From Acidobacteriota bacterium (lineage in GTDB: Bacteria > Acidobacteriota > Thermoanaerobaculia > Multivoradales > UBA5704), in the NCBI GenBank assembly GCA_040005235.1, contig JBDTZG010000018.1:1-64000 (forward strand): DNA of 64,000 bases, given 5' to 3'. The notes under the pieces were generated by a model. It saw nothing but the letters and a program-made list of their open reading frames with translations. It did no database searches and had not been told where the DNA came from. The translations under genes and the position numbers were made by a program. Each line of letters opens with the position of its first letter. Within the stretch, counting starts at the first letter, position 1. Shown here in pieces: positions 1-56,474 of the stretch.

Positions 1-238
1 AGGGGGGGATTTTTAAGTGATCGGGAGGGGGGAAATTTGGATGATCGTTGACACACCGCAATCCCGAATCCGGTGGGTGATGATCGGCTACGAGAATCTG
101 CTGTTCCGAACGGGCGGCCTACTGTTCCGCGTCGCGCGTGGACCTCGCGATCACCCGGAACCGGCGGGACGAGCACAAGCACCGCGGCGCGACAACAGGA
201 ATCGCGTTCGCGGCGTCCGGGACCGGGCGTTGCGACGG

Positions 239-737
239 AAAAAAGTGGTGCGCGAACGCTACGCCCAACTGCGCGGACGCTACGCGCGCCTGTAGGGACG
301 CTAGAAACAGGAACGCGAACGCAACGAAGTGGAACGCAGCCTCCGCGCTCCACTTTTTTTCGTCCGCGCCGTTCTGCGCGGCGTCCGTGTTTCAGCGTCT
401 AGCGTTCGCGCTCCCCTTCTTTGCGTTCGCTTTCCACGTTTTTGCGTTCGCGTTCTAGTTCTCAGCGTTCGCGCCGTTGCGCGTAGCGTCTGTGCACGTG
501 TGCCCAGCGTCCGTGCAGTGGTGCACAGCGTTCGTGCTCCTCCGTTTTGCGTCGCAAAACCGGCTCGGGGAGTCGGAGAAGTGGCCTCGTGCGTTCGCGC
601 TCCTGTTTCTGGTGTTCGTCAGGCGGCCCTTTGCGTTACAAGTTCGGTGTTTCGCGTCGCGAGCGCAGCAGCTTGTGTCGCAGCGGGACCGTCTTGTGTC
701 CGCCTATCGGTCGCGCGTTTCTCGGGCGGACGAGGCA
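239..737. repeat. Inverted pair of degenerate 21-bp-period tandem arrays (element 1; GCGTTC/GAACGC core)
   Basis: GAACGC/GGACGC ends at 259, 280, 301, 322. GCGTTC-like motifs start every 21 bp from 339 to about 717 (381, 402, 423, 444, 465, 486, 507, 528, 549, 591 and onward). Unit 302-322 matches the reverse complement of 591-611 at 19/21. Confidence 0.85.
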
Positions 738-40367: not shown

Positions 40368-40454
40368 AACGCCCTCCCTGTGAGTCAACAAATATGCAAT
40401 GTTTCGGCCGAAGCTGTCATACAGTTGCGGTGGTCTGAGTGAGGATCTCACGAA

Positions 40455-40649
40455 ATGAGCAAGAAACGCGTCAAGACCGATACGGCGTTGAGACAAACGC
40501 CTCCGAAGAAAGCTTCCTCGGCCTTCGAGAGGCTCCAAGTTTTCGCTGGGATTGTGGATAGCGGCGGTCTCCAGCTTTCGACGGAAGCCGGGAAGCGCTT
40601 CCGCGAGATCTTGCGAAGGAAGTCAGCGGAAGAGTCCAAACGGGTCTAG
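40455..40649 (+). CDS. Small antitoxin-like protein (no adjacent toxin)
   Basis: GAGG RBS; AGIVDSGGLQLSTEAGKRFREIL resembles antitoxin C-termini. Confidence 0.45.
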   Translation: MSKKRVKTDTALRQTPPKKASSAFERLQVFAGIVDSGGLQLSTEAGKRFREILRRKSAEESKRV

Positions 40650-40669
40650 ACATCGCGGAGAAGCAACCC

Positions 40670-40951
40670 ATGGCACGAGCAACCTGGAAAGGCGCCACGA
40701 TCGCGGAGAGCGATACGTTCGAGATCGTAGAAGGTAACGTCTATTTTCCGCCCGACGCGGTGAAGGAGCGGCTTGCATCGAGCAGCACAACGACGGTCTG
40801 CGGCTGCAAGGGTACGGCGAACTACTACAATGTGGTGGTCGACGGCGAGGAGAACTGCGATGCCGCTTGGTACTACGCCGATCCGAAGCCGGAGGCGGCG
40901 AACATTCGTGGCTTTGTCGCGTTCTGGCGCGGCGTGACCGTCGAGCGGTAA
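40670..40951 (+). CDS. DUF427 family protein
   Basis: IAESD...EGNVYFPP, C..KGTANYY, AAWYY..PK. Confidence 0.9.
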   Translation: MARATWKGATIAESDTFEIVEGNVYFPPDAVKERLASSSTTTVCGCKGTANYYNVVVDGEENCDAAWYYADPKPEAANIRGFVAFWRGVTVER

Positions 40952-41012
40952 GCCCGCCGATCGGGGGAAACCTCGGGAAACTCTTCGGCAAAGTCCACAG
41001 CAGGAGGTTCAA

Positions 41013-41894
41013 ATGGAAGACCTGAAATCGAAGCCGCTCGGCTCCGTCTCGAACGATGACCTGATCGAAACTCGACGCACCCTCCATTGGGCGATGGCCG
41101 CCGCCTCGGCGCCGGGCAAGCAGCTGATCCCGGCACGGCCGGATGCTGCGGAGCAGAGCCTCGTCTGGGACAGTGGGCGCTCGGCGTTCCTTCAAGGCCA
41201 GATCGCCGGGATTCATGAAACCTTCCGCTCCGCCCTGGTGGTGGACCCGCCCGCGCTTGCCCTGTTCGACAAGGCCGGCGACGAGATCGCCTCGCATCCC
41301 CTGGCCGGGCAGACTCTCGACGAGGTGTACGCCTGGCTGACGGTCGAGGTCGAGACCCGGATCGAGCATCCGCTGGGAAAGCCGCTCGAACGCCCCCTCC
41401 CGAACCAGCCGGAAGAGACCGAGATGCCCGACGCCGGCGTGGCGCACGGCGCGCCGTTCCAGTTCAATCTCGGCGGGCCGGCCGAGCTGGCGCGCTGGTT
41501 CGCATTCGGCGCGGGTCGGTTCGAAGAGATCTTGGCGAACGACCCTCAGGCGGGGGAGATTCTGCTCTGGCCCCACCATTTCGATCTCGCGACTCTGATC
41601 ACCCTCGCTGGAGAGGGCGAGAACGCCAGCACCGTGGGCGTCGGCCTGTCGCCGGGCGATTCCACTCGGCCGCTGCCCTATTTCTACGTTAACGCCTGGC
41701 CGACCCCGAAGGAACCGGCGTTGCCTGCACTCCCTTCGGGCGGCGTCTGGAACACCGAAGGGTGGTTTGGCGCCGTGCTCGAAGGCGCGCCGCTCCTCGC
41801 GCTGGGGACGGCGGAAGAGCAAGCCGCCGCAGCGCGGGACTTCCTGGCAGTGGCTCTCGAAGCTTGCCGGAGGTTCGTGCGCGAGGCCTCCTGA
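41013..41894 (+). CDS. DUF5996-like hypothetical protein
   Basis: LWPHHFDLA, GLSPGD...PYFYV..WP. Confidence 0.7.
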   Translation: MEDLKSKPLGSVSNDDLIETRRTLHWAMAAASAPGKQLIPARPDAAEQSLVWDSGRSAFLQGQIAGIHETFRSALVVDPPALALFDKAGDEIASHPLAGQTLDEVYAWLTVEVETRIEHPLGKPLERPLPNQPEETEMPDAGVAHGAPFQFNLGGPAELARWFAFGAGRFEEILANDPQAGEILLWPHHFDLATLITLAGEGENASTVGVGLSPGDSTRPLPYFYVNAWPTPKEPALPALPSGGVWNTEGWFGAVLEGAPLLALGTAEEQAAAARDFLAVALEACRRFVREAS

Positions 41895-41943
41895 AAAAGA
41901 AAACCGCCCGCCGCGAAGACTCCCACGGCGGGCGTTTCAATTT
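41894..41943. terminator. Bidirectional intrinsic terminator
   Basis: A-tract, CGCCCGCCG/CGGCGGGCG stem, T-tract, between convergent genes. Confidence 0.7.
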
Positions 41944-41967
41944 CGCAAACCGGCCGTTTCGTGCCCC

Positions 41968-44916
41968 TCAGGGCGCCACGTTTACCGCCACGACCGGTCC
42001 AATCGCGCCGAAGAATTCCACGCACTCTTGGATCATCTCGACCTGGAAGTCGTAAGTCCCTGGCGTGGAAGGGGCAATACCGTTGATCGTCAGGGTTGCC
42101 TGCTGCCCGGGGGCGAGGGTCGTGGGGAAATCGACCCGGCCTGGGTTCCAGGCGGGGTTGCCGATTTGGGCGAGGCGGTAGGCGTTGCACTGCGCGCCGA
42201 TCGGGCTCCAGGTGAGGCCGCCGACGTTCTTGACCGTTACGGTTGCGGAGTAGGGTTGCCCCGCCGTCATGCTCGTCGGCACGGTCTGGGAGAGGATCTG
42301 CGCCTGCTTGCCGCCGCTCTCCACGTTGATTGCGAGGCTGGGGCTCGTGGCGCCGAAATACTCGACGCATTCGTGCACCATCCGCAGTTGGAAATTGAAG
42401 GTTCCCGTCGTGGAAGGGGCGGTCAAGGTGAAGCTCAACGTCGCACTTCCCCCCGCCGCGACCGGGGCGACCAGCTCGATTCGCGAGGGCTTCCAGACGG
42501 CGTCGCCGACCTGGGCTAGGCGATAGGCGTTGCACTGCGCTCCGACCGGGTTCCAACGGATTCCGCCGAGATTCTTGACCGTTGCGGTCGCTGTATATTG
42601 CTGGCCGGCGGTCATCGTCGAGGGCACGTTCAAGGCGACGAATTGCGCGTTTTTCGTGTTGTTGAGGCAGGTGCTCGGCGCGGAGTGGCACGCCTCGTTG
42701 CCGGCCGGATGGGCGACCACCTGGTAGTAGTAGGTTGCGCTGTCCGCGACCGCGCCGTCGGCGAACGAGGTCGTGCCCAGGTCGTCCGCGATCTTGGCAA
42801 ATCCCGCGTTGCAGCCGGTCTCGTTGCGAAAAACATCGTAGACCAAGCCGCCGCCCGAGTTAGGCCACGTGACCGTGGTGGTGTTATCGCCGTCGGCCAG
42901 GTCGATCGTCGGCGGTGCGGGTTGGGTGCAGCCGCGAAAGCAGACGCTGGCTCCCGGGTCGGTCGCGCAGGCAATGCCGTGTCGGTCGAAGGCCGCGAAC
43001 AGCTGGCACGAGTGAGGGGTGCCGTTGGCAAGGTTTCCGTCGTCGTCGTCCATCGCCCGCATGGTTTTCCACCAGGATCCGATGTTGCACCCGTTCGAGG
43101 TGTAGGTCGGACCGGTGACGCAGGTGAAAGCGTTGGTGGCCGTCGAACGTGACAGGTACCAGAGCCTTTCGAGGACGTTCCAGGAGCCGCTGCCGCCCGG
43201 TTTCGGCAGATCGCGGTTGGCGAAGTCCCACACCGCCTCGGTGGGGACGTTCGCTTCACAGTGAGGCTCGCCGCCGCAGGGTCCGTTCCCGGTGGTGCCG
43301 CAGCGGAGCTGGGTGTAGTTGGCGACGGTATGGGGCACCGCCGAGGCATGCCGGCCCCAGTCGATATCGCGCAGCCCCGTGCAGGACGTGCATGGATCGC
43401 CGTACGAGTCGCAGTTGGCCGGGCGAAATCCCGGGCCGACGCAGGAGTTGTGCAGCGTGAGGGCGGCGATCACGTCGGCATAGGCCTCGGTGTTTGCCGT
43501 GTCCAGGCCTGCGCCGTCGTTCTGATCGACGCCGTGGCCGAGCTCGTGAAGGATGAACCCGGGCTCCTCTCCGCTCGCGCCGCAAGAGCCCGCGAGTCCT
43601 TCGTAGAGCAGAATCCGGCTGCCGTTCCAGAAACCGTTACAGGCGCCGCTGTTGTTGACCGAGACGACCACCTGGCTGTTGAGCCAGGGATTGCCGGGCA
43701 GCCAGCCACGGACGATGTCCTTGCCTCGGTTGACGTGGTAGAAGCTGGTCCGCGCGGCCCGAGTGTTGCCCGTTCCGCCGAAGCCCGGCGTCGCGCAGTT
43801 GCCATCGGTCGTCGTGCCGAAGGGAAGGTCGCCTGCGGGGTTCGAGTTGAGCAAGATTCCGCCGCACGTTTCGGCGATGCCTACGAACAGGCCGTTGAAC
43901 GTCGAGCTGACCGGCGATCCGCTATAGGTGTAGGTACCGGCCGAGTTCGCGCTCTGGCCGCCGCCGAGATCGATGAAAGGCATCGGCCGGAGGATTTCCG
44001 CTCCGGCGCCCGAATCGGGAGCCACGCCGCCGGTCGCCCCGGCGTCGAGATCGGTGTTGAGGAATTCGACGATCTCCCCTGTCGTGGCGTCGATCCGAGC
44101 GCGCCAGGTGCCGATCACCCCTTTGCGGCGAAACGAGATCTGCCAGACCGTCTCCAGGCCGTACCCTCGGGCGAAGTCGAAGCCTTCGGCGAAACGGTCG
44201 TCGCGCACCGCGATCGGCAGCAGATGGAGCGAGCCGCGATCGACCAAGCGATCGACCGCCGCGTCGAACTTGCCGACATAGGCCGAGAGCTTGGCGTAGG
44301 CTTGAGCGCGAGTCACCCGGACCGGCGGTGCCTCGGCAAGGGCCGACGGCAGCCGTTCGCTGCCCATCTGGATCAGGTTGCCGTGGCCGACGCGAAAGAC
44401 GATTCGCGCCCCTTCGACGGCGAGGTCGCCTCGCATCACGTCGAAATCGATCTGTGTTAGTGAATCCGAAGCCGGTCCGGAGCGACCGGGGTTGAGACGA
44501 AGGTCCTTTCCGTCGGTCCCGAAAAGGCCCGGATGATCGGCGAGGAATCGGCGTGCGACACCTTCGAGGCTCGGCAAATCTGCGGTTTTTCCCACTCCGC
44601 GAGCCCAGGGGATGCCCGCCCCCTCGGCCGACTCGACGAAACCGTTGTGGGCATCGAGGTAGGCGTTCCAATCTCCGTGGTCGAGCTGGAACGCGTTCCA
44701 GGCGCGATCGAGATTGGAGGAGAGGGCGGCGCGTCGATCGGCGAGCGGCACGAGCGACTCGCGAGGCTCGAAACGTTGGTCTCCGCGCGCGAGCGCAACG
44801 AAAGGGCTGTTCGGTTCGAGTGGCGCCTGCGCGAGCGTCGCGCCGGAGAATGCGAGCCCGATCATTCCCAGCACGAACGGGCGAAAGTGGGAAAAGGCAC
44901 CGAGCCGGGGTCGCAT
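41968..44916 (-). CDS. Secreted M4/M36-like zinc metallopeptidase with FN3-like and two NBR1-like Ig domains
   Basis: Signal peptide, propeptide (IDATTGE), NGFWNG, HELGH...EAYAD, two repeated VPxxMTAGQ...MxxECVExFG domains. Confidence 0.8.
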   Translation of the reverse strand: MRPRLGAFSHFRPFVLGMIGLAFSGATLAQAPLEPNSPFVALARGDQRFEPRESLVPLADRRAALSSNLDRAWNAFQLDHGDWNAYLDAHNGFVESAEGAGIPWARGVGKTADLPSLEGVARRFLADHPGLFGTDGKDLRLNPGRSGPASDSLTQIDFDVMRGDLAVEGARIVFRVGHGNLIQMGSERLPSALAEAPPVRVTRAQAYAKLSAYVGKFDAAVDRLVDRGSLHLLPIAVRDDRFAEGFDFARGYGLETVWQISFRRKGVIGTWRARIDATTGEIVEFLNTDLDAGATGGVAPDSGAGAEILRPMPFIDLGGGQSANSAGTYTYSGSPVSSTFNGLFVGIAETCGGILLNSNPAGDLPFGTTTDGNCATPGFGGTGNTRAARTSFYHVNRGKDIVRGWLPGNPWLNSQVVVSVNNSGACNGFWNGSRILLYEGLAGSCGASGEEPGFILHELGHGVDQNDGAGLDTANTEAYADVIAALTLHNSCVGPGFRPANCDSYGDPCTSCTGLRDIDWGRHASAVPHTVANYTQLRCGTTGNGPCGGEPHCEANVPTEAVWDFANRDLPKPGGSGSWNVLERLWYLSRSTATNAFTCVTGPTYTSNGCNIGSWWKTMRAMDDDDGNLANGTPHSCQLFAAFDRHGIACATDPGASVCFRGCTQPAPPTIDLADGDNTTTVTWPNSGGGLVYDVFRNETGCNAGFAKIADDLGTTSFADGAVADSATYYYQVVAHPAGNEACHSAPSTCLNNTKNAQFVALNVPSTMTAGQQYTATATVKNLGGIRWNPVGAQCNAYRLAQVGDAVWKPSRIELVAPVAAGGSATLSFTLTAPSTTGTFNFQLRMVHECVEYFGATSPSLAINVESGGKQAQILSQTVPTSMTAGQPYSATVTVKNVGGLTWSPIGAQCNAYRLAQIGNPAWNPGRVDFPTTLAPGQQATLTINGIAPSTPGTYDFQVEMIQECVEFFGAIGPVVAVNVAP

Positions 44917-45097
44917 GAGTCTCTCCGTGGTGTCCGGTACTCAGCCGAAGCCGACCGTGACAAAAGCCCATTTGTGCAAGACGAAGACCAGACCCGGAGG
45001 AGGACGTAGGCCCTGGGAACTTCGCTTCTATGGAAGGTGAGTCGGCAAGAAGTGCCGATTTGATATTCAGTAGCGGGCCGAACCCCGGCCAGATGTT

Positions 45098-46708
45098 TCA
45101 GTCCGCCACGACCACCCGGTCCCGCCCTTCCTGCTTTGCGCGGTATAGCGCGCGATCGGCGGCGGCGACCCATGGAGCGGGCGAGGGCTCTCCCGCGGGG
45201 ATTACGCTCGCGACCCCCACCGAAAGGGTGACCATCGGCTTGACCGTCGAGCTGGGATGGTCGATCGCGAGCCCGGCGAGCCGCTCGCGGGCCTGCTCGG
45301 CGAGCAGCGCGGCTCCGGCGAGGTTGGTGCCGCTCAAGATCACCAGGAACTCCTCGCCGCCGTAGCGGGCGACCAGGTCGCCCGGGCGCTGCACCGAGTC
45401 GCGGAGGACGCCCGCGATGCGTTGGAGACACCGGTCGCCCGCGATGTGCCCCAGGCTGTCGTTGTAGGCCTTGAAGCAATCGACATCGCAGAGGAGCAGC
45501 GACAGCGGCTCCCCGGTCCGGGCGAGCCGGCGCCATTCGAGGTCGAGCGCCTCTTCGAGCCGGCGGCGGTTCGCGACTCCGGTGAGCGGATCGATTTGCG
45601 ATATCTGTTGGAGCGTTCGATTGGCGCTCTGCAGATGCCGGTTGGCCTCTTCGAGCTGGCTCTTGGTCACCGAGATCTGCTCGTTCAGCAGCGCCATCTC
45701 GATCGCCCCGGCCACCTGGTCCGCGACCAGATCGAGCAGGCGCTGGTTTTCGACCGAAAACGCCTCCGGATCGTCGTTTTCAAGGTTGAAGGCGCCGAGC
45801 GTGCGGTCGCCGAAGCGGATCGGCGAGACGTATTCGGCTTTGACGTCGAAGGAGACCGCCCGATAGTCGGGATCGTCCGCGACATCGCGCACCAGCTGGG
45901 GCCGGCCGAGCCGGATCGCGCGGCCGACGATCCCGGCGTCGATCGCCCAGGTTTCGCGATCCGAAACGTCGATCGGCGTGCGCGTCGCCACCGCGTGGTA
46001 CGACCATTCCACCTCGGACGCCGCAGCGACCACGATGTCGACCAGCAGGAAATCGAAGCGGCGCTGAATGTAGGTCGCAATGCGGTGGAGGATGGTGCGC
46101 AGGTCGGCGCCGCCGAGCGCGGCGCGCGAGACCTCGGTCAGTACCTCGAAATGGAGCGCCCGTTGGCGGGTCGCCTCGAACAGGCGCGCGCTCGCGATGG
46201 CGCCGGAGATCTGATCGGCGATCGCCTCAACGGTCGGCAGGTGCCGGGAAAAGGCGGCCGGCCGCGGGCTTTCCAGGTTGAGCACAGCGACCACCACGCC
46301 GCGATGGCGGATCGGCGCGCACAGCTCCGAGCGGGTCCCGGGGAAGATCTCGACGAAGTCGGGGTGTTCGGCGGAGTCGTCGATCAACAGGGTGCGGCCG
46401 GTCACCGCGACCTCGCCCACCACGCCGCTGCCGAAGGGCCGGCCGTAGCCGGGGCGGACGTCGGTCGCCACCGAGCTGGTGATCGCCTCGCAGACGAAGC
46501 CTTGGCGCTCCTGATCGAGGCTGATCAGGGCGACCAGCTCCCAGCCGAACGCCGCGGCGAGCGCGTCGGTCACCCGCTGGAGCATCGGGCGCAGCTCCAG
46601 ATCCTCGGTCGCGATCCGTGCGATCGCGGCCAGCGCGGCCAGCTCGCGATCGACCGTCGGCGCGGGGGGAGGACCGCCTCCCCGACTTCTGCCCCGTTTT
46701 TCCGGCAT
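45098..46708 (-). CDS. GAF-GAF-GGDEF diguanylate cyclase
   Basis: Two GAF domains, DPLTG, RPGD I-site, GGEEF. Confidence 0.92.
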   Translation of the reverse strand: MPEKRGRSRGGGPPPAPTVDRELAALAAIARIATEDLELRPMLQRVTDALAAAFGWELVALISLDQERQGFVCEAITSSVATDVRPGYGRPFGSGVVGEVAVTGRTLLIDDSAEHPDFVEIFPGTRSELCAPIRHRGVVVAVLNLESPRPAAFSRHLPTVEAIADQISGAIASARLFEATRQRALHFEVLTEVSRAALGGADLRTILHRIATYIQRRFDFLLVDIVVAAASEVEWSYHAVATRTPIDVSDRETWAIDAGIVGRAIRLGRPQLVRDVADDPDYRAVSFDVKAEYVSPIRFGDRTLGAFNLENDDPEAFSVENQRLLDLVADQVAGAIEMALLNEQISVTKSQLEEANRHLQSANRTLQQISQIDPLTGVANRRRLEEALDLEWRRLARTGEPLSLLLCDVDCFKAYNDSLGHIAGDRCLQRIAGVLRDSVQRPGDLVARYGGEEFLVILSGTNLAGAALLAEQARERLAGLAIDHPSSTVKPMVTLSVGVASVIPAGEPSPAPWVAAADRALYRAKQEGRDRVVVAD

Positions 46709-46826
46709 GTCTCGATCTTACCCGGGGTGGAAGGCGAAGGGGAGGGGCATGCCGGCCGCGAAAAAGTACGCCCCGACCTCTGCCATACTTTCGGCCTCGA
46801 CTTTCTTTGCTCCCGAAAGGACCGCC

Positions 46827-47993
46827 ATGAGCTCTACCGAACCCGCAAATCCAGCCGACTCTTCGAGATCGGAACGCTGGTACGACCTTGGGCCGGTCGA
46901 GGAGCTGAAATCCAAACCGCTCCAGCAGATCGTGATCGGCCGGACCAAGATCGCCCTGTCGTTTCAAAACGGCGCGTTCGGGGCGGTCTCGGGCGCCTGC
47001 AATCACGTCGGCGGGCCGCTCGGCGAAGGGCATCTGGATGGCGAATATGTCGTCTGCCCGTGGCACCACTGGAAATTCCATCGAACGACCGGCGAAGGGG
47101 AGCCGGGGTTCGAGTCCGATTGCGTGCCGCGCTACTCGCTCCGCGAAGAGGAGGGCCGCCTCTGGGTCGACCTGCAACCCGCGACGAGGCGGCACAAGGC
47201 GGCGCACGATCCACATCCCCTCACCCGGCCGGTCGAGCGCGAGGTCGGGCCGATCCGCGTGCTCGGTATCGCGACGACCGTGATGGACAACGCCTATCCC
47301 CGCTACTCGACTTCGGACGAGCTGCTCGAAACGGCGCTCCATCACGCCGGGTCCCACGGCGCGGTCACCCGTTTGATCCGCCTGCGCGAGCTGGAGTTCC
47401 GGGCCTGCGAGGGGTACTACTCGAAAAGCTCCCACGCCTGCACCTGGCCCTGTTCGATTACCCAGATGGACCCGGAAGACCAGCTCGACCAGGTCTACGA
47501 GGGGCTCGTCCATTGGGCCGACGTGGTGCTCGTCTCCACCCCGATCCGCTGGGGCTCGGCCAGCTCGCTCTATTACAAGATGGTCGAGCGGATGAACTGT
47601 GTGCAAAACCAGGTGACGCTGTCGAACCGGGTGCTGCTGCGCAACAAGGTCGCGGGCTTCATCATCACCGGCGGCCAGGACAACATCCAGGCGGTCGCCG
47701 GCCAAATGCTCGGTTTCTTCGCCGAGATCGGCTGCGTCTTCCCGCAGTTTCCCTACATTGCCCACTCGCGCGGCTGGACCGCCGAGGACATGGAAAAGAA
47801 CGTCGCCTTCGTCAAGAAAAGCACGGAGCTGCACGACGCCGCGCGCGAGCTGGCCGAACGCTCGCTCTCCATGGCCGAAGCCCTGGTCACCCACACGATC
47901 GAAGGCGACCACATGGTGCGCGCCGGACGGAAAGGGTTCTCGCGCGAAGGAATCGAGACGCCCGTAGCGATCGCGGCCGCGGCGGAAAGCTGA
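46827..47993 (+). CDS. Rieske [2Fe-2S] plus flavodoxin-like (NADPH-dependent FMN reductase) fusion
   Basis: CNH...CPWH; C-terminal STPIRWG flavodoxin fold. Confidence 0.85.
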   Translation: MSSTEPANPADSSRSERWYDLGPVEELKSKPLQQIVIGRTKIALSFQNGAFGAVSGACNHVGGPLGEGHLDGEYVVCPWHHWKFHRTTGEGEPGFESDCVPRYSLREEEGRLWVDLQPATRRHKAAHDPHPLTRPVEREVGPIRVLGIATTVMDNAYPRYSTSDELLETALHHAGSHGAVTRLIRLRELEFRACEGYYSKSSHACTWPCSITQMDPEDQLDQVYEGLVHWADVVLVSTPIRWGSASSLYYKMVERMNCVQNQVTLSNRVLLRNKVAGFIITGGQDNIQAVAGQMLGFFAEIGCVFPQFPYIAHSRGWTAEDMEKNVAFVKKSTELHDAARELAERSLSMAEALVTHTIEGDHMVRAGRKGFSREGIETPVAIAAAAES

Positions 47994-47995
47994 GC

Positions 47996-49249
47996 ATGCG
48001 GCGCTTCGCCCTCGCGGCCTCTCTGCTGCTCGCGGGTTGTTTTGAGGGAACCGCGCTTGGCGCTCAGGCGCCGCGTCGGCCGTTCCCGCAACACACGGCG
48101 TATGCCGCGGGATCGATCCTTCCCGGCAATCATTCGCGGTCGGAGCTGGATGCGGCGGCCTTGGCGTTTTATCGGCTATGGAAGGCGCGTTACCTCGTTG
48201 CCGGCTGCGGCGCGGGGCGCTATTACGTGGCGGTCAACGCCGACGGCAAATTTCCCGACCCGGAGGTGCTCTCGATCTCCGAAGGGCACGGCTACGGCAT
48301 GCTGCTCACCGCGGCCTTCGCCGGAGCCGACCCGGACGCCAAGGCGATCTTCGACGGCCTCTATCGCTATTTCCGCGACCATCCGAGCGACCGAAATCCC
48401 AACGTGATGGCCTGGAAGCAGCTAGCCGATTGCGAGGACGCCCCGGACGGCCAAGACACGGCGACCGACGGCGATCTCGACGTTGGCTACGCCCTTCTGC
48501 TCGCCGACCGGCAGTGGGGAAGCGCCGGGCCGATCAACTATCTGGCCGAAGCGCGAAAGGTGATCCGGGCGATCCGCGCCGTCGAGCTCCATCCGGCCGA
48601 CGCGACGATCCAGCTCGGCAGTTGGGTCTCGACCGATCAACCGCGCCATTTCAACTCGACCCGCACGTCGGACTTTCTGCCCGGCCATTTCAAGGCGTTC
48701 CGTTTCGCCACGGGAGACGCCCGTTGGGCGACCGCCGCCAATCGCGTCTACGCCCTGGTGCAGCGGATGCAGTCGGTTTACTCGCGCGGAACCGGCCTGC
48801 TCCCCGACTTCATCGAGCGAACGAACGCCGCGCCCCGTCCGGCGAGCCCCGGCTTCCTCGAAGGCCCGAACGACGGCGCCTACTACTACAACGCCTGCCG
48901 AGACCCCTGGCGCCTCGGCCTCGACGCCCTGCTCTCAGGAGACACCCGTGGCCGCACGGCGGTCCGGAAGATCTCCGCCTTCCTCCGCACCCACGCCGCG
49001 GGCGACCCCGAACGGCTGCGCGCCGGTTTCCGCCTCGACGGCAGCGATCTGCCCGGCAACGACTACACCGACCTCTCCTTCCTCGCCCCGGCCACCGTCG
49101 GCGCCCTGCTCGAACCCGAGCACCCAGAATGGCTCGAAGGTCTCTGGGACGAGGTCGTCGGCACCCCGATCGACGAAGCGGATTACTACGGCAACACGCT
49201 CAAAGCGCTCGCCCTGCTCGCCGTTTCGGGCAACGCGTGGCGGCCGTAG
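47996..49249 (+). CDS. Glycoside hydrolase family 8 (chitosanase/glucanase-like)
   Basis: SEGHGYGM, ATDGDLD, YNACR.PWR, YYGNTL; N-terminal LLAGC. Confidence 0.9.
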   Translation: MRRFALAASLLLAGCFEGTALGAQAPRRPFPQHTAYAAGSILPGNHSRSELDAAALAFYRLWKARYLVAGCGAGRYYVAVNADGKFPDPEVLSISEGHGYGMLLTAAFAGADPDAKAIFDGLYRYFRDHPSDRNPNVMAWKQLADCEDAPDGQDTATDGDLDVGYALLLADRQWGSAGPINYLAEARKVIRAIRAVELHPADATIQLGSWVSTDQPRHFNSTRTSDFLPGHFKAFRFATGDARWATAANRVYALVQRMQSVYSRGTGLLPDFIERTNAAPRPASPGFLEGPNDGAYYYNACRDPWRLGLDALLSGDTRGRTAVRKISAFLRTHAAGDPERLRAGFRLDGSDLPGNDYTDLSFLAPATVGALLEPEHPEWLEGLWDEVVGTPIDEADYYGNTLKALALLAVSGNAWRP

Positions 49250-49310
49250 CGCGGGGGCAAAATCAAAATCCCCGCCGCTCAATGGATCGAGATCACGGAG
49301 ACGCGGCCCT

Positions 49311-49910
49311 AAGCCGCACAGAAATTCGCTGACGCGGCCGAGAAAATCGCTGAGGCCACCCGGCCAAACGGTAAAGTCACCGGGCCAATCCCTGAAGCCG
49401 CAGAGCGAAACGGTGAAGCCGCCGAAAAATTCGCCTAAGCCACTCAGAAAATGGGTGAAGCCACTCAGAAAATCACTGGGGCCACACAGAAAATCACTGA
49501 AGCCACTGAGAAATTCGCTGAAGTCCCCTAGAAAACTCCTGAGGTCACGCAGAGTGGTCAATTTCTCGGTGGCGCGACCGGATGATTGGACCCTTTCGGT
49601 GAATTATCCGGTGGCTTCATCGAATTTCTGTGTGGTTTCAGCCATCCTCCGGGGAAGTTGAACGACGTGTTGTGTAGTTTCGGTGCTCCGTTACGTGGCT
49701 TGGGCAACCGTTTGAGTGGCTTCAGTGATTTTCTGGGTGACTTCAGCGAATTTCTGGGTGGTTTCGCCCGCTGCGACCGTGGTTTTGGGGCAATTTGAGG
49801 TGCTTCGTGGCGCTTTGCGGGGCTTGGTTGCCTAACGCTGCGTGGTTTCGCGGGATTTCCTGCGTGGCTTCGCGGGAAGTCCCGCGTGGCTTGGCCCCTT
49901 CGGTAGCGGG
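49311..49910. repeat. Inverted pair of degenerate 21-bp-period tandem arrays (element 2; TGAAGCCAC/GTGGCTTCA core)
   Basis: AAGCC-like motif every 21 bp from 49311 to 49542 (12 units). GGCTT-like motif every 21 bp from 49613 to 49781, then 20-23 bp spacing to about 49890. Confidence 0.88.
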
Positions 49911-50119
49911 TTTTGGGAGGCTGGCCGGAGTGACGGAGACGGCGCTGGGATTTGTGCGGCGGTTTGTGTAGCGGCCGGACTGCGTCCGTCTTATCTTCCA
50001 AAAGAACCGGGCTCCTGTCGAGCTGAGGATCCCGCGGATAGGGCAATTCTTGCCTGGGGTAGCGTAAACTCTAGGGCACAGTTCGAATCCAACGCGGGAT
50101 TGCGCCCAGCCAACCGGGC

Positions 50120-53100
50120 GTGGAGGTTGCGAGAATGTCGGTTCGGATTGGACCGATGGCTGAATCCGTGCGCCGATGGGGAGGGTGGCCAGTTGTTCTC
50201 GGCCTCGCTCTTGGTGCGGGGGTGGCTTCTCGCCAGCAACTCAGCGTTGCCGAGTTCAAGGGTTCTACAAAGGACCACGAATCTCTGATCGAAGCGTTCG
50301 CGGGGTACAGCCCGTTTGAAGTTCGGCTTTCGGGTTTCTCCGCTTACACTTCCTGCGTCAACCTTGAAAGTGCCCCGACCTCTCGCTGTAGGGCTATCCG
50401 GTTTGATGCCCAGCAAAGAAAGAACCAGCGCCACGCAGTTTTCGAAATCGATCGCTCTGGTTCTCAGGGAAGATCTTCTGACCTTCACGCGTTGGGGATC
50501 GCCAATCTAATCAGAGATCCAAAGTATCTCTTGACCGCAGTAAGCGCTCTTGAGAAAGCACGGGAGACCGCAAAAACTCACCAGGTTGAGATTCTTAATG
50601 ACCTTGGTGCCGCTTACTACGTTCAGGCTCTCGAGACCAAGAGCCCGGCTTCGTTCGTCAGGGCACTTGAAGTCCTAGAGAGAGCTCACCGGCTTTCGCC
50701 CCGCGATTCAGTTGTTCTCTTTAATCGGGGCCTCGCCGAGTGGCGCCTAGATCTCGATTCTGCGGCGATTGCCAGCTTCTCAGCTGCCGAATCGGCTGAG
50801 CAGGGAACAGGTTGGGCTGTCGAATCAGCGTCCCGAATCGTGTCCATCCTGCGCCTAGAAGAACATATAAAGAGAAACTCCCTACCAATTTTGTCGAGCG
50901 AACGGCTTCTCGCCGCTTCGCCTCGGCAGATCGAGTCATGGGCCAAAGAAAGACCCCAGGATGTTCGCCTCGTCATCGAAGGGCAACTTCTGGGGGACTG
51001 GGTATCGGAAGGGAACGATCCGATCCGAGCGAACTTGCTCCTGCAAGCCGGCCTTCGAGCCGCGAAAGAGTTGCAACGCATTCATGGAGACGAATTGCCC
51101 GCCGCGACCCTATCCGTCATCGAACGCGCCACGATAGATAGGGCACCACGGATTCAAGAACTTCGTGCCGGGCATCTGGCATTTGCAAAGGGAATTGAGC
51201 TCCTTGAAGTAGATGAACCGGCCCGTGCAATCGCCGCCTTCTCGATAGCAGAAAGCACTCTGCGGTCCGAAGGCAGCCCGTTCTCGTACTGGGCGGACTT
51301 CCATCAAGGCGTGTGCGAGTACTATATGGGCAAGACCGAGGAGGTGCTACTCCGGTACGCGGCTCTTGAAAAGGAGATTGCGGCTCGCCCATACCCGAAT
51401 CTCAAGGCTCGCATCGACTGGATGCTGGGTCTGACTCTGATGGTCCAGGGGCAATTCCATTCGTCGGAAGCGGCGTACGAGCGAGCAATCGACCGATTCA
51501 AAGAGACTGGCGAAGATGGCAACGCCGCGTATCTCGCTGCTCTAACCGGAAAAGATTTACGTCTGATGGGAGCCGCTGACTCCTCTTGGGTGGCACTTGC
51601 GCACGCTCTTCACAACCGTGATCTCGTGCAGCCAAAGGAGCGGGTCATTACTATCCTTAGGCACGCCGCAGAGAGCAGCGAAGCACTTGGGGCCAACCTT
51701 GCAGCCACGCACTTCTTTGATGAGCAGGTGGCTGTTGCGGGTCAGCTCGGGAAGGCATTCGATCTTTGCGACGCCTTGGTCCGACGTGCTCGAGCTGCTA
51801 CAGCGAGCGCCGTTCCGAACCAGGTAGTCAGGGACCTTCAAACTGCTTTCAGTCTCTTGCCATCGATACCTGCGGCCCTCCAAGCGCGTGCAAGAGCCGA
51901 TATCTCCGCGGTTCGGGGGGAGTCGCTGGTCAAAACCGATCCACGTCAAGCGATGCCGGCTTTGGATTCCGCTCTCCAGTATTACGAGGTTCAGGGGAAC
52001 TGGGTCGAGACCCTGCGAGTCGACCGCCTGCTTGCTGTCGGCGCTCTCGCCGGGAAGGATTTCGATGGTGCTGAGCGATTCCTGGAAGATGGAATCCGCT
52101 TGAGTGAGGATCAGCGAAACTCAATCTCTCGATCGGACCAGCGGGCTGCCTACTTCGCGCAAGCTCAGTCGCTTTTCGAAGCGATGATTGACTTGAAGCT
52201 TCGCCAACGACTGGATCCTGACGGAGCCTTCAGCTTTGCCGAGAGAGGTCGAAACCGTAGTCTTGCAGACTTAATCCTGACCTCCACCAAGGCGGAATCA
52301 CCTGCTCGCCGACTTGCGAGTGGCCGCTTCAAGCGTCTTGACGTAATTAGTGCTCTGCCGGCCAGGACGTCGTTGATTGAGTACGCCGTGCTCACTGATC
52401 GGCTCGTAATCTGGCGCCTTCGTCGAGAGAAGTCATCCGTTGTCGAGGTTTCAGTCTCTCATGATCGATTGGCAGGCAGATTGGCTGGCTTTCGTTCACT
52501 ATTGCTACGTGGAACGTCCCAAAAAGAAATAAAGGCTGAGGCGGTGGAATTAACGGCCTGGCTACTTCCGCCGGAGCTCGGTCCATTTCATGAAAGCGAA
52601 GCGATTGTTTTTATACCTACAGGCCCGCTCCACGAGTTTCCCTTTTCCGCCTTGCTTTCACCAACAAGTAGACGGTTTTTGATCGAAGACTATCCACTAC
52701 AAGTCTCTCCAAGTTCGGCGATTTTCGTTGCTGCGACGGAGAGCCTAGAGAAGCAGCCGAAAACGCCTCCGCGTGTTCTCCTCGTGGTTGATGACCCAGC
52801 CTTTGACCCTTCCCGGCATCCCACTTTGAGACGTCTACCCAATGCCGCTCTAGAGGCGCAGGAGGTCGCAGCATTATATTCAAACGCTTCGCGTCTCAAT
52901 GGGTCCGAAGCTACCATTGAAGCGTTGACTTCGCGCCTTCCTATGGTCGAAGTATTTAGTTTCGCCGGACATAGTGCCGCGCCCGGAGTAGGTGTCGCAG
53001 CGGATGCTGGCCTCCTTCTCGCTCCATCTCCACGCCAAGAGAGAGGAAATGACACACTGACACCGAGTTTCATCTCAACTCTCCACTTACCAAACCTCCG

Positions 53101-53404
53101 ATTGGTCATCCTATCTTCGTGCGAGTCTGCATTGGGATCCTATCCGGCGAGCGAAGAGTCGGCGAGCCTTGCTTCTGCCTTCCTCGCCGCTGGAGCGCCG
53201 GCCGTAGTAGCTAGTTTATGGAATGTCGGAGACATACCTTCCCGTGCTTTCTCCGTAAAATTCCATCGCAGTCTGCGTGATGGACTAAGCCCAGTGCGCG
53301 CACTTCAGTTAACTGCAGGCGCTTTGATTCACAACAGGAATCCAAAATTGGCGAGCCCAAGCTCCTGGGCCGCCTTCGAACTCTGGGGCGGCTTAGCTCC
53401 GTGA
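50120..53404 (+). CDS. Membrane-anchored TPR + CHAT (caspase-like) protease
   Basis: N-terminal hydrophobic segment, TPRs (LNDLGAAY, FNRGLA), CHAT motifs IPTGPLHEFPF, FAGHS, LSSCES, AGAPAVVASLWNV, WAAF. Confidence 0.9.
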   Translation: MEVARMSVRIGPMAESVRRWGGWPVVLGLALGAGVASRQQLSVAEFKGSTKDHESLIEAFAGYSPFEVRLSGFSAYTSCVNLESAPTSRCRAIRFDAQQRKNQRHAVFEIDRSGSQGRSSDLHALGIANLIRDPKYLLTAVSALEKARETAKTHQVEILNDLGAAYYVQALETKSPASFVRALEVLERAHRLSPRDSVVLFNRGLAEWRLDLDSAAIASFSAAESAEQGTGWAVESASRIVSILRLEEHIKRNSLPILSSERLLAASPRQIESWAKERPQDVRLVIEGQLLGDWVSEGNDPIRANLLLQAGLRAAKELQRIHGDELPAATLSVIERATIDRAPRIQELRAGHLAFAKGIELLEVDEPARAIAAFSIAESTLRSEGSPFSYWADFHQGVCEYYMGKTEEVLLRYAALEKEIAARPYPNLKARIDWMLGLTLMVQGQFHSSEAAYERAIDRFKETGEDGNAAYLAALTGKDLRLMGAADSSWVALAHALHNRDLVQPKERVITILRHAAESSEALGANLAATHFFDEQVAVAGQLGKAFDLCDALVRRARAATASAVPNQVVRDLQTAFSLLPSIPAALQARARADISAVRGESLVKTDPRQAMPALDSALQYYEVQGNWVETLRVDRLLAVGALAGKDFDGAERFLEDGIRLSEDQRNSISRSDQRAAYFAQAQSLFEAMIDLKLRQRLDPDGAFSFAERGRNRSLADLILTSTKAESPARRLASGRFKRLDVISALPARTSLIEYAVLTDRLVIWRLRREKSSVVEVSVSHDRLAGRLAGFRSLLLRGTSQKEIKAEAVELTAWLLPPELGPFHESEAIVFIPTGPLHEFPFSALLSPTSRRFLIEDYPLQVSPSSAIFVAATESLEKQPKTPPRVLLVVDDPAFDPSRHPTLRRLPNAALEAQEVAALYSNASRLNGSEATIEALTSRLPMVEVFSFAGHSAAPGVGVAADAGLLLAPSPRQERGNDTLTPSFISTLHLPNLRLVILSSCESALGSYPASEESASLASAFLAAGAPAVVASLWNVGDIPSRAFSVKFHRSLRDGLSPVRALQLTAGALIHNRNPKLASPSSWAAFELWGGLAP

Positions 53405-53417
53405 GACTGAGGACACG

Positions 53418-54386
53418 ATGGCTACCTCATTTACTCTAGTTATTGCCTTCACAGGCCTAGTAGCGTTTGTGCCGGTGCCAGACAGCAATGCCCCCAAATC
53501 AGTGTGGGCACTCCTTGTAAACGCAGAGGATGGAAGTGGAAGTTGCAGCCCCAAAAAATCACATTTGCATCCTCATTTTGCACAGATGCGAATCCCGAGT
53601 AAGAATCTTTGCACTAAGGCCTCCTGTCCCCCTGGATTACCTGAGGTCGTTTCATATGATCTCGAATCCACGGATATTAAGCTAGAATCAACCGGTACGC
53701 CACCGGTGACAGTCTGCTGTACCAAGGGCTCCGAGAAGAAGGTATTCGAGATTTCGGCCGGAAATCTGACGCAGGAAGCGTCAGTGCCAGCATCGCCTTG
53801 TGAAGCCACTGACTTCTCGTGGGTTGCAGACATCAATAAGTTTTCGACCGATTTTGCGAAGGTCTGTGAGTATTGTCTCGACGAAGCATGGTCACTAATA
53901 AAAGTTCCTGCGGATCGTATCTCTGCAAGGATAAAGCTTACCTCCGGTCTGCTCCAAACAACGAGGTTAACTCGAAAGCGGTCCACTCTTGACTACGCCA
54001 TATTTAAGGCAGGGTCGGGGGCGCGCGTCTACGAGAAAACATTGGCTGAAGAACTCGAGCTTACGGTGGTTCTTGAGGATAAGGCGGTCTTCCATCTTTG
54101 CGATTTTTTGCTTAATCCGGAATGTGATCATCAGAAAACAATCACTCTTTATCCAGAGAAGGCGGGAGAAGTTATCAGGGTGGTCTTGTCAAATGATGTG
54201 CCAAGGGGAAGCCCGGCTGATCGTTTGAACAAACATTTCTGGTTCTTTTACAAGTTGGCAGATGCCGTCCCGACTCCTTTCGACAGTGCCTCCGAGTGTC
54301 CGAAATCTGCATTGATTCCGACCCCGGAGAATGGCGATTTTGGCGATCCTCGCTGTCCGATGAGTCAGATGCTTCCATATAAATGA
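53418..54386 (+). CDS. Hypothetical Cys-rich protein downstream of the CHAT protease
   Basis: GAGGA RBS, 322-aa ORF, 13 bp after the CHAT stop. Confidence 0.8.
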   Translation: MATSFTLVIAFTGLVAFVPVPDSNAPKSVWALLVNAEDGSGSCSPKKSHLHPHFAQMRIPSKNLCTKASCPPGLPEVVSYDLESTDIKLESTGTPPVTVCCTKGSEKKVFEISAGNLTQEASVPASPCEATDFSWVADINKFSTDFAKVCEYCLDEAWSLIKVPADRISARIKLTSGLLQTTRLTRKRSTLDYAIFKAGSGARVYEKTLAEELELTVVLEDKAVFHLCDFLLNPECDHQKTITLYPEKAGEVIRVVLSNDVPRGSPADRLNKHFWFFYKLADAVPTPFDSASECPKSALIPTPENGDFGDPRCPMSQMLPYK

Positions 54387-54395
54387 GGAATCAGC

Positions 54396-56225
54396 ATGCG
54401 ACGCAACTCGCGGAAAACCGGTGATACTAAGAGTGGGGCGAGCGAGCTAAATCTACCGATTGCGATCGCGGTTTGTTGCCTAATGTGGTCAGGCACTACG
54501 ACCTTGGCGCAATCGGCAAAGCAGTGTCTGCCGGTTGTGCGGCCACCCAACCAGTTCAGCACCTCTGTGAAATCGGTAGCGGTTGCGGCAGGAGATGATG
54601 GCTGGTCGTGTTGGCTCACTCAAAGTTTTTTGACAGGAAAAGATCAAAATGGAACTTCCTGGCCAAACTTTGCGCCAACCGCATGGCAGAGGATACAGTC
54701 ACAGGCTCCCTATTGGCCGGAATATCACTATGACAAAACAAAAGGGGGTGCTGACTATATTTTCCCTTATGGCTTTGATTCCGGCACGAGGCTACTTTTT
54801 TATGCTGGTCACGGAACGGCGACAGACTGGAGCTCTCACGACAAAACGATTAGGTTGCTGGACGTAAGAGTGGGAGACGAAAAACTTAGATACCTGTGGC
54901 AATGTTCATGTGACGTCATGGCACATGGCATTCCGATCGATCTGGGTGCCGGAGAAGATTACTACCGGCCGCTCTCATTCTTTTATTCGGGAGGCGGCGC
55001 CGATGATCGACGAAAGAGAAATGTCTATGCTCGATGGGAATCCGCGGCGGACCCAGGGTTGCGGTTAGCTTGTGGAGGGTCCAGTGCAATATGTGGTAAT
55101 GCAGGCGCTACTACCAATCGGATATGGGATAATTTTTTGAACAGGAACTTTGACGTCACGGATTCATTCCTTGAGGGCGTTTTTAATTCGCCGTCCGGTG
55201 TTCCCCTTTGTCTTTCGCAAGGAGGAGATAAGATTAATAAGACAGCCATTTACGACCGAGATTTCAGCGGAGACAAGAACGAGGCCGCGTCATTTATGGG
55301 CCAGCGGTACTTATATTTGGCTTACCCTGTGCCATTTAGAAGGCATGGGCCCCTGCCAGTGGTAGGTAGCCACGCTACACCCAAGCTGGGTCTTTACCCA
55401 GTTCTGGCGGTGAATAAGGAGCAGCCGGAGTCAAATAGTAACTGTAAAGACGTTAAGCCTGATGTGCAGTTTTCATGTGAGGGTCAAGAATTAGGCGCGT
55501 GCTTCATAGACTCGAAGAGCGGTGCCGAGTATTATTGTGGTAAATCGGAATTTGGAGAGGCGCTTCCTTACTCTGAGAATCGCAAGAAAGAGCATGAATA
55601 TATTGAGGCGGCGAAGAATTTTGTTTTAGCTCGGGGATGGGTTGTGCAGTTGGCGGACATTGCGGGATTTAGTGTGGTCATCGAGCGCGCAAAGATTGGC
55701 ATGAAGGGTAATGGATTAGAACGATATCGGAAGAATGCCGTGGTCAGATTTAAGCAGAAATTCCGAGTGCCTTTTAGGGAAGGACAAGTTGAGGTGCCGG
55801 TGATTGGGTCTGGAGGGGAAATAGTTGTCCAGCTCAATAACGATGGGAAAGTGCGTAGCGCTACCAGGGTGTGGCGGGCAGTAAGGGATCTTCAAGAGAC
55901 AAAAACCTTGGAACTCCTGGGTCCTGCGCAGGCCTTAGACGGTCTGTTGTCGAAACTCAAGGCGCGGCTGAGTGACATTCTTGGATTATACGATTTTCGA
56001 GAAGACAAGATATCGTTTGTTTGGGGCTACAAGGAAGAATCTGGAAATTGCCGACAGAAGGAGATGCGGATTGTATATCAGTTTACAGTAAAGCCATTCC
56101 CTGGGCTCGGTGAAAAAGGTGTCCATCCGATTGTCCTTGAGGCGCTCGGTCAAACGGGTGAAACGAAAGAGGGCGGCGATCGTTCGCAACTCGACACAAA
56201 TTTTTGCGACGAGGGATTGGACTAG
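54396..56225 (+). CDS. Secreted DUF6345-like protein with putative His-Cys dyad
   Basis: Signal-like N-terminus; LLFYAGHG ... VGD.KLRYLWQCSC. Confidence 0.7.
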   Translation: MRRNSRKTGDTKSGASELNLPIAIAVCCLMWSGTTTLAQSAKQCLPVVRPPNQFSTSVKSVAVAAGDDGWSCWLTQSFLTGKDQNGTSWPNFAPTAWQRIQSQAPYWPEYHYDKTKGGADYIFPYGFDSGTRLLFYAGHGTATDWSSHDKTIRLLDVRVGDEKLRYLWQCSCDVMAHGIPIDLGAGEDYYRPLSFFYSGGGADDRRKRNVYARWESAADPGLRLACGGSSAICGNAGATTNRIWDNFLNRNFDVTDSFLEGVFNSPSGVPLCLSQGGDKINKTAIYDRDFSGDKNEAASFMGQRYLYLAYPVPFRRHGPLPVVGSHATPKLGLYPVLAVNKEQPESNSNCKDVKPDVQFSCEGQELGACFIDSKSGAEYYCGKSEFGEALPYSENRKKEHEYIEAAKNFVLARGWVVQLADIAGFSVVIERAKIGMKGNGLERYRKNAVVRFKQKFRVPFREGQVEVPVIGSGGEIVVQLNNDGKVRSATRVWRAVRDLQETKTLELLGPAQALDGLLSKLKARLSDILGLYDFREDKISFVWGYKEESGNCRQKEMRIVYQFTVKPFPGLGEKGVHPIVLEALGQTGETKEGGDRSQLDTNFCDEGLD

Positions 56226-56474
56226 TTCCATTTGCCGCGGGAGGCATAGTCCGAGCGCATATACTTCCTGATCGGTTCCGCGAGGGTGCTGAGTAGCCAG
56301 TTTGTGAGCGCTCGGCGCGGCGGCTGGTCGCCGGGGCTCTTTGATCAGGCGCTTGCCGGGCATCCTCCTTGGCGAAAGCCGCAGGGCGTCCCTATGCCCC
56401 CCTCCCCCGGGCACGTACTTCTTCGTATAGTCTCGACCACAGACCGGAGAGGGCACAGAGAGGGACTCCTGGGG

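Follow-up and report, generated by a model that had tools for sequence, protein, structure and literature searches.

A polar, dispersed family of inverted 21-bp arrays in an Acidobacteriota lineage: a copy beside a glycosyl hydrolase gene that is probably a docking array

What is the long inverted array of short repeats that stands between a glycosyl hydrolase gene and a lower-GC island in this Acidobacteriota genome? In the window analyzed here (a 64,000-nucleotide stretch of one contig), a sequence-only reading had noted two arms of 21-bp units in opposite orientation, with units shared between the arms in shuffled order, and had taken them for a dynamic non-coding module able to pair in alternative registers. 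We find that positions 49295-49912 form one real intergenic element, that by sequence comparison this element is one copy of a polar, dispersed repeat family, and that the 620-base element is most likely non-coding. Since other copies of the family stand right behind a gene for a predicted DNA-binding protein, the copy in the window is probably neither a gene nor a simple hairpin but a docking array for that protein. The locus has the following parts.

48128-49249, plus strand: left neighbor, a glycosyl hydrolase family 8 (GH8) gene (Pfam PF01270, E 2.9e-22).
49295-49912, minus strand: the complete element (about 618 bp), whose family orientation ("sense") follows the minus strand of the window; its limits are those of homology to the orthologs in genomes G002 and G007, whose flanks are unrelated.
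49295-49307, no strand assigned: tail terminus ACGGAGACGCGGC, directly before the first unit (ortholog and end alignments).
49308-49559, plus strand: left arm (the family's "arm B"), made of 12 21-bp units whose plus-strand core is (T)GAAGCC(A)C (21-base layout, TRF period 21, direct-repeat family).
49539-49700, no strand assigned: center, degenerate units on one 21-bp lattice, with the switch from forward to reverse (21-base layout, lattice offset).
49558-49765, plus strand: right arm, "arm A" of the family, reverse units with the core GTGGCTTC or variants of it on the plus strand (direct-repeat families, 21-base layout).
49766-49912, minus strand: head, present at one end only (head-end alignment of 26 family loci; TRF period 22).
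49913-56408, plus strand: right neighbor, a lower-GC island of three genes (GC, ortholog comparison, Pfam).

The units of the element, 12 on the left and about 12 on the right, sit on a single 21-bp lattice and are contiguous, without spacers, in the 21-base layout, which rules out a CRISPR array. The center overlaps the inner ends of both arms. Between about 49558 and 49804 the right-arm units keep to the strict lattice, with starts at 19 mod 21, and about five more follow at 21/22-bp spacing to about 49912; TRF assigns a period of 21 to 49437-49535 and 49716-49760 and one of 22 to 49838-49892. The phasing described by the sequence-only reading is thus real, both for the 12 left-arm units and for the right-arm units on their common lattice, but the cores are less uniform than it had stated: AAGCC is exact in only 6 of the 12 left-arm units and GGCTT in only about six right-side units, the others lying one or two changes away. 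The two exact inverse pairs that it had pointed out are present, with 49487-49507 the 21-nt reverse complement of 49715-49735 and 49509-49525 the 17-nt reverse complement of 49739-49755, and they are not nested. The consensus unit is CTGAAGCCACCGAGAAATTCG, in which the only internal stem, as read from the consensus, is TTC-N3-GAA across the unit junction.

The non-repeat part of the element, the head at its right end, is about 140-147 bp long and in the alignment of 26 family loci contains GAAGCCACGC boxes spaced about 22 bp apart, a CGCGGGA..TCCCGCG hairpin, and a GGCC-rich terminus. Because the head lies at 49766-49912, the family sense strand corresponds to the minus strand of the window. 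The element is polar, as the window copy aligns to a reference copy with 89.8 bits in one orientation and 62.1 in the other. By eye, the tail terminus together with the start of the first unit approximates a mirror of the head terminus.

The 21-bp pattern extends well beyond this locus. Sliding autocorrelation over the source genome (G000; 140 contigs, 6.22 Mb) revealed 78 regions with 21-bp periodicity, compared with 28 at lag 20 and 0-7 at each of lags 15, 18, 19, 22, 23, 24, 27, and 30, and the pattern is far above chance. TRF arrays with at least three copies number 33 at period 21, 15 at period 42, 7 at period 63, and 4 at period 84; a separate TRF set peaks at 20, 40, and 41, while periods 18 and 24 give only four and three arrays. 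When merged, the 21-bp arrays of G000 occupy 82 loci and include many unrelated unit sequences. Units of the GAAGCCAC type in the forward-then-reverse layout recur at four further places in the genome (C35, C74, C54, and C24). A 27-letter pattern, allowing up to two mismatches, has matches at many loci in each of five of the seven congeneric genomes and in none of 33 genomes of other genera, and BLAST detected more diverged arrays of the window type in a sixth congener, G001. The possibility raised by the sequence-only reading, that comparable elements might not exist elsewhere, is therefore contradicted by the copies found in the source genome and its congeners.

Comparison across the family shows what is held constant. 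The set consists of 29 loci from six congeneric genomes, 5 from G000 and 24 from five congeners, the latter sampled from clusters among the matches listed, with 105 further matches lying outside the sample. Forward units are followed by reverse units in all 29 loci. In 27 of them the two arms are offset by 19 mod 21, and the distance across the center is 19, 40, 61, or 82 bp, which indicates that the center itself is built of degenerate units. The cores of the two arms (191 and 290 units) display contiguous conservation at unit positions 3-9 (AAGCCAC), with the neighboring positions at 0.1-0.4 bits. End alignments of the family show a conserved head at one end only, the other end being less sharply defined. 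A search of the literature on Acidobacteria and Thermoanaerobaculia, confined to articles without their supplements, found no description of 21-bp inverted arrays or of a partner protein such as the one described next. The polarity with its conserved head, the family membership, and the tie of other copies to a DNA-binding-protein gene all go beyond the account given from the sequence alone.

In 7 of the 29 family loci an ORF of 185-209 aa adjoins the arm-B end, always in convergent orientation, so that arm B is the end next to the partner gene in these founder copies. The last codons of the partner (…KIPEATE) fall inside the first unit, and the ORF ends exactly at the arm-B end. Two partner genes of G000 stand beside GAAGCCAC-type arrays, at C24:13293-13820 and C21:90031-90555, each directly upstream of its array. 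No partner gene is found beside the window copy or at 22 of the 29 loci as a whole, and most other 21-bp arrays in G000 (82 loci) do not adjoin the partner family. For 13 of 15 partner-family genes in six genera (4 in G000 and 11 elsewhere with loci returned), a 21-bp periodic array, defined by a lag-21 score of at least 0.6, lies within about 1 kb downstream, and only one of the 15 has such an array upstream, with 1.0% of 4000 random 1030-bp segments of G000 reaching the same score; because the loci are related by descent, these counts overstate independence. The unit type follows paralogy, with GAAGCCAC-type units beside close paralogs and unrelated units beside distant ones, and the 21-bp architecture persists after a complete change of unit sequence. 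No other conserved gene accompanies the pair of partner and array in the 1.5-kb flanks of the 15 loci.

A profile search for the partner identified 4-9 copies per genome in six of the seven congeners and further copies in five other genera of their taxonomic family; 16 genomes from the order's other families gave no copy. The partner family and the window-type arrays co-occur in the same six of seven congeners, which are kin and not independent samples, and G005 (85% complete) lacks both. The partner is predicted to be a small DNA-binding protein with a coiled-coil and a winged-helix module. Its AlphaFold model, made from seven sequences, is poor overall (mean pLDDT 58). In it, a long N-terminal helix at residues 43-81 (pLDDT about 83) is followed by a linker without order and then, at residues 133-196, by a helix-helix-helix-strand-strand module. 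The structures nearest to this module in Foldseek are the CodY C-terminal domain, RovA, SlyA, and Sso10a, at E 0.015-0.03, with no structural match at E 0.001 or better. Four partner members gave no Pfam family at E 0.01 or better, searches of NCBIfam and of PDB sequences and profiles returned no match, and the best ESM Atlas score, 0.87, lies below the 0.9 level for a lead.

We tentatively favor the idea that the window element is an orphan array of putative binding sites for the partner made at C24/C21, a reading that commands a little less than half of our confidence. The anatomy and polarity of the element, its membership of the family, the constraint on the lattice, the conserved core, and the linkage of gene and array are what the data show; both the binding of the partner and what that binding would achieve are what we infer. 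In each copy every unit carries the core GAAGCCAC on one continuous 21-bp lattice, and the units would act as iteron-like binding sites for the partner protein. As 21 bp corresponds to two helical turns, successive cores would be displayed on one face of the DNA, where bound proteins could stack side by side. Orphan arrays such as the window copy would be loaded in trans by protein from the founder loci, and this loading might titrate or handcuff the protein, nucleate a protein coat, or insulate the border of acquired DNA. The potential to form a long hairpin would then be a by-product of two oppositely oriented runs. Against this reading stand the lack of a partner gene near the window copy and at 22 of the 29 loci, the many other 21-bp arrays of G000 that do not adjoin the partner family, and the poor partner model. 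The unit also has no dyad symmetry, whereas winged-helix dimers usually read sites that do, and the sense frame has fewer stops than expected from a position-independent model. Gene and array may also duplicate together, so the different units beside distant paralogs are no proof of recognition.

The GH8 orthologs of G007, G002, and G001 are 90%, 87%, and 84% identical to the gene in the window, and in G000 the element starts 46 bp past the GH8 stop codon (at 49249). In G002 the element likewise lies directly behind the GH8 stop codon. In G007 it lies about 2 kb further from GH8 and 138 bp ahead of a response-regulator gene, which in G000 occupies 56408 and beyond, and at the G001 site there is neither element nor island. 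The 6.5-kb island (49913-56408) begins at the head end of the element and contains a CHAT/TPR gene (50120-53404, PF12770, start about 50120) and two ORFs without Pfam families (53418-54386 and 54396-56225); at this locus it is found in G000 only and is absent from G001, G002, and G007. On the same side, G002 instead has an alpha/beta hydrolase gene, an anti-sigma-like gene, and a TPR gene. Thus, the element occupies a hypervariable site. The three orthologous elements themselves are 74-78% identical from 49295 to about 49912, and their arms differ by substitutions, by the slots that unit variants (…TTCGCT, …TTCACT, …ATCACT, and …ACCCCT) occupy, and by two indels of exactly 21 bp. Small indels are absent from the arms, and one-base gaps are confined to the head. 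The description of the element as dynamic is therefore supported only between species, where units are gained or lost whole and variants swap positions. Within the population, contigs from four DNA runs at the locus show no variants; one spans the whole stretch unchanged, and the others break inside the array.

Alternatively, the element could be transcribed as a 3' or 5' UTR and form an imperfect duplex of about 250 bp that stabilizes, terminates, or targets the message (e.g., to RNase III) or pairs with transcripts of other copies. Co-transcription is plausible given the 46-bp distance from GH8 and the position of founder arrays directly after the partner stop codon. Either strand of the window element yields a very long imperfect hairpin (-303.6 kcal/mol, z -10.1, for the plus strand and -252.9, z -9.1, for the minus strand), folding is strong throughout the 27 oriented copies (-0.40 to -0.54 kcal/mol per nucleotide), and the head hairpin by eye shows CGCG/CGCG to CACA/(C/T)GTG changes across copies. 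However, the better-folding strand is inconsistent, being sense in 19 of 27 copies and antisense for the window copy and its orthologs; flanking genes are in mixed orientations, which are approximate because these genes were called with a home-made codon-usage score; a scan for promoters and terminators gave nothing above shuffles; and no curated covariance model of Rfam 15 matches at E ≤1 over 48800-50400 on either strand. The arms also do not covary within an element. A repeat search found 14 inverted pairs in the window element (72-93% complementarity, in several registers 21 bp apart), so the pairing in alternative registers proposed earlier is physically possible, yet we found no sign of selection on it: the match of units to their own element's opposite arm exceeds the match to foreign arms in 17 of 26 cases, the means are 16.05 vs. 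15.74 of 21, and the window copy ranks 25th of 27. This agrees with the shuffled unit order and leaves a selected hairpin unsupported, and it suggests that the units are individually constrained, with the fold-back a consequence of their orientation. We consider a role in RNA improbable. Still less probable is that the arms encode a heptad-repeat protein, (EATEKFA)n, a linker, and (FLGGFSE)m, of which the window copy would be a pseudogene. This frame outscores the other five in codon usage (+0.09 bits per codon, the others -0.4 to -1.1), is fully open in 20 of 27 oriented loci (the codon-for-codon antisense frame in 11 of 27) with 10 stops against about 30 expected under a position-independent unit model, has only whole-heptad indels, and starts with ATG in the C24 copy. 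Native genes, though, score 0.28-0.40 on the same scale (trained on G000), and no start or stop codon is conserved: the frame opens about 13 codons ahead of the first good unit, at a TGA within a head unit that is out of phase, and at many loci it extends hundreds of codons into neighboring genes. Conservation is strong at the third positions of GAA and GCC, where changes would be synonymous, and extends to core sites that would be 4-fold degenerate if read as codons. Averaged per codon position, the information is 0.86/1.01/0.77 for one arm and 0.91/1.05/1.18 for the other, with no period-3 signature. The window copy has two stops in sense and four in antisense, and the EATQKIT/EATEKFA frame named by the sequence-only reading does contain stops, four across the core. 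Only four related called proteins were found among 5.8 billion; they make up 4 of the 120 phmmer matches, and among five matches inspected, four are unrelated low-complexity heptad proteins (GKFSQAV, LGSYSLV, KDGEFTV, and ESTEPSC repeats) and the fifth, P0002, is a called frame across a family copy. Neither start nor stop codons are conserved, the best frame of the window copy is interrupted by stops on either strand, and what is conserved is an unbroken stretch of DNA and not particular codon positions; the earlier judgment that the element is non-coding is thus supported. The least credible alternative is a functionless minisatellite that evolves by slippage and unequal exchange of a 21-bp unit. 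Whole-unit indels, reshuffled unit variants among orthologs, and assembly breaks inside arrays are as such a process would leave them, but it explains neither the conserved head, the fixed polarity, and the shared lattice offset nor the conserved core amid freely varying neighbors, nor the linkage to one protein family.

A weightier alternative, although we judge it unlikely, is a selfish, non-autonomous fold-back repeat (MITE- or REPIN-like) that moved as a single-stranded hairpin, perhaps through Y1 (IS200/RAYT-like) transposases, and that has no host function; its placement beside variable DNA would then reflect where insertions are tolerated or targeted. Copies of the family are numerous and dispersed, have defined ends that roughly mirror each other, and contain no intact gene; the fold-back has high stability (z about -9 to -10). 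Genomes differ in whether they carry a copy at the GH8 site, where G000 and G002 have the element directly after GH8, G007 has about 2 kb of other DNA between, and G001 lacks the element, and the site of the C54 copy of G000 has other content in G001 and G003. A RAYT-like gene lies 290 bp from the C35 copy (NF047646, E 3.2e-11; PF01797, 23.2 bits), short fragments of this gene occur next to two other copies, with more in one called protein, and G000 has 11 Y1_Tnp matches. However, a full RAYT-like gene is found at only 1 of the 29 loci, where it is a multi-copy gene amid a nest of its own fragments, its NF047646 (NCBIfam) score of 43.3 bits falls below the cut-off of 80, and no arrays are found near the other 10 Y1_Tnp matches of G000. 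A search of the genus with the C54 and C24 loci and their orthologous sites uncovered no target-site duplication or clean empty site; instead, the orthologous sites contain other, unrelated arrays. Neutral decay, moreover, would not have kept the 21-bp lattice free of small indels in 27 of 29 copies whose similarity is only about 75%, and selfish spread leaves unexplained the arrays downstream of 13 of 15 partner-family genes.

Among known systems, the closest functional analogs of the window element appear to be iteron and centromere-type arrays, each of which has a small DNA-binding protein as its cognate. Plasmid iteron arrays act with an initiator or control protein, as in P1 incC/incA with RepA, F, R6K, and pPS10. 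Like iterons, the family has tandem units of about 17-22 bp, or about two helical turns, with a conserved core in each; arrays beside the gene for a small protein whose winged-helix, DNA-binding fold is predicted (at 7 of 29 loci and for 13 of 15 partner genes, though not at the window copy); and extra arrays elsewhere that could titrate or pair. Unlike iterons, the family arrays are chromosomal, number several to many per genome, and combine two long inverted runs with a polar head; reading of their flanks revealed no origin features; and the partner, a coiled-coil, linker, and winged-helix protein with 4-14 paralogs per genome, has no PDB sequence match and no Rep family domain (Pfam, E 0.01), which argues against a replication initiator system. 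The centromere-like arrays parC and tubC are bound by the small proteins ParR and TubR, which are thought to polymerize on the repeats. There too, a gene for a small DNA-binding protein adjoins an array of short, phased direct repeats. In contrast, the family arrays lie downstream of the gene and not upstream, orphan copies are scattered over the chromosome, and neither a motor NTPase gene nor another conserved neighbor is found in the 1.5-kb flanks of 15 loci, which argues against a partition cassette.

Other repeat classes resemble the family in form. Eukaryotic fold-back (FB) transposons have long inverted arms of short tandem sub-repeats; the likeness is one of form only, FB elements being eukaryotic, much larger, and moved by a different transposition system. 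With respect to MITEs, the ends of the element are roughly mirrored, and neither a duplication nor a clean empty site was found at the two sites compared. REP, BIME, and REPIN-RAYT sequences are imperfect palindromes of 20-40 bp that are intergenic, multi-copy, and lineage-specific (PMC3116915, PMC3733652, PMC3337134), with REP palindromes carrying a GTAG or CGTC end tag (PMC3733652). The family is alike in being intergenic, multi-copy, lineage-specific, inverted, and able to form hairpins, with a Y1 transposase-like gene by one copy, but that RAYT-like gene is multi-copy and beside only 1 of 29 copies (fragments near two more). The family is not a REP or REPIN: the unit is not a palindrome, its consensus has neither GTAG nor CGTC, and each arm has about 12 head-to-tail units in place of one REP. 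The inverted heptamer arrays of Xanthomonas and Nostoc (Rehm et al. 2015, PMC4692102) consist of a G-rich, quadruplex-forming 7-mer and share with the family their intergenic tandem arrays and variable unit number; in contrast, the family unit is 21 bp, TRF finds no 7-bp period, and the family has a head and a partner gene.

If the units do bind, this lineage would keep several private pairs of DNA-binding protein and repeat lattice, and gene-less lattices spread over the chromosome, some beside foreign DNA, would represent a new way to mark or organize regions. Even as purely selfish DNA, the family would be a bacterial fold-back repeat of an unusual kind, with a strict 21-bp lattice that needs explaining. 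In either case, about 80 arrays of 21-bp period per genome break assemblies and yield spurious heptad-repeat ORFs, and recognizing this class of array improves annotation.

The position of the window copy, at the left boundary of the CHAT island as the sequence-only reading had stated (GC 0.667 on the left and 0.577 on the right), also bears on a broader form of the docking proposal. The arrays and their proteins might constitute a chromosomal system in which each paralog polymerizes on its own 21-bp lattice, while orphan lattices, several of them bordering recently acquired DNA, would serve as points of nucleation or as barriers and so coat, bridge, or insulate the DNA beside them; we regard this extension as doubtful. 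It would amount to a sequence-addressed counterpart of H-NS-type silencing, and we know of nothing like it described in the phylum. Genome-wide, the association of arrays with such boundaries suggested by the earlier reading is modest: the GC of the two flanks differs by at least 0.05 at 14 of 58 usable arrays vs. 13% of 5000 random positions (Mann-Whitney p 0.027), the latter drawn from all DNA, genic as well as intergenic. On the GH8 side of the window element, a GC hairpin can be read from the sequence at 49251-49276, after the GH8 gene.

Within G000, the window's own genome, one of the other two-armed 21-bp arrays resembling Element 2 (the C54 copy) has orthologous sites in two congeneric genomes. 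In G001 (locus L058, G001:C9:81100-82700), this site carries a two-armed 21-bp array composed of an unrelated unit, GATCTCGCCCAA…, and in G003 (locus L060, G003:C97:1-1700) it carries other genes together with a direct 21-bp array whose unit, …GCATTTCCCATCTGC…, is different again. Thus, the same intergenic site holds different array families in related species.

A family of HTH (XRE-like) plus TPR-like regulator genes adjoins 21-bp arrays at nine array loci of G000, and in all five of the loci that were read the array is positioned after the 3' end of the gene. These regulators are a second DNA-binding gene family with 21-bp arrays behind, unrelated to the partner family of coiled-coil and predicted winged-helix genes. 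Several of the arrays beside them contain GATCACCACTGAGCTGGCCCA-type units, the best frame of which (ITTELAQ / LGQLSGD) gives a real-gene-like score of +0.3 to +0.5. Loci of this family and the other features described here are as follows.

G000 C18:145053-146975, HTH/TPR-like regulator gene; array at 146974-147431
G000 C137, C124, C8:182080, C107, C111 and C77, further HTH/TPR-like regulator and 21-bp array loci
G000 C10:23000-28000 (locus L056), 19-unit 21-bp array at 2045-2445 within the locus
Window ~239-323, Element 1, GAACGC-type units
Window ~339-591, Element 1, GCGTTCGC..T-tract units
G000 C8:129731-129978, C5:49041-49363 and C113:8346-8460, examples of arrays of period 20, 40 or 41 bp
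G000 C35:1-12500 and 40000-47600, and C18:18400-28500, RAYT-like gene nest

The 19-unit array immediately follows, on the downstream side, an 87-aa ORF for a VapB-like antitoxin, at the place where a toxin gene would be expected. Element 1 (window 200-700) is a second two-armed 21-bp array, with a unit unrelated to that of Element 2; its contig, of which window base 1 is the first base, has no partner-family gene. The three-gene CHAT island contains no mobility gene, and the two ORFs that follow the CHAT/TPR gene in it (window 53418-56225; 322 and 609 aa) match no Pfam family.

In G000, 28 arrays form a separate class, with periods of 20, 40 and 41 bp. Clear palindromes (GATAGC-G-GCTATC, ACTTCC..GGAAGT) are present in those consensus units that were read. 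These arrays cannot be coding, and they look more REP-like.

On C35 and C18, complete copies and fragments of a RAYT-like Y1 transposase gene (322 aa) lie together in a nest. The copies are separated by an ~80 bp repeat holding a CGAGGA..TCCTCG hairpin (five copies on C35, four on C18), in direct orientation within each contig, and one interval of the nest encloses one Element 2-type array.
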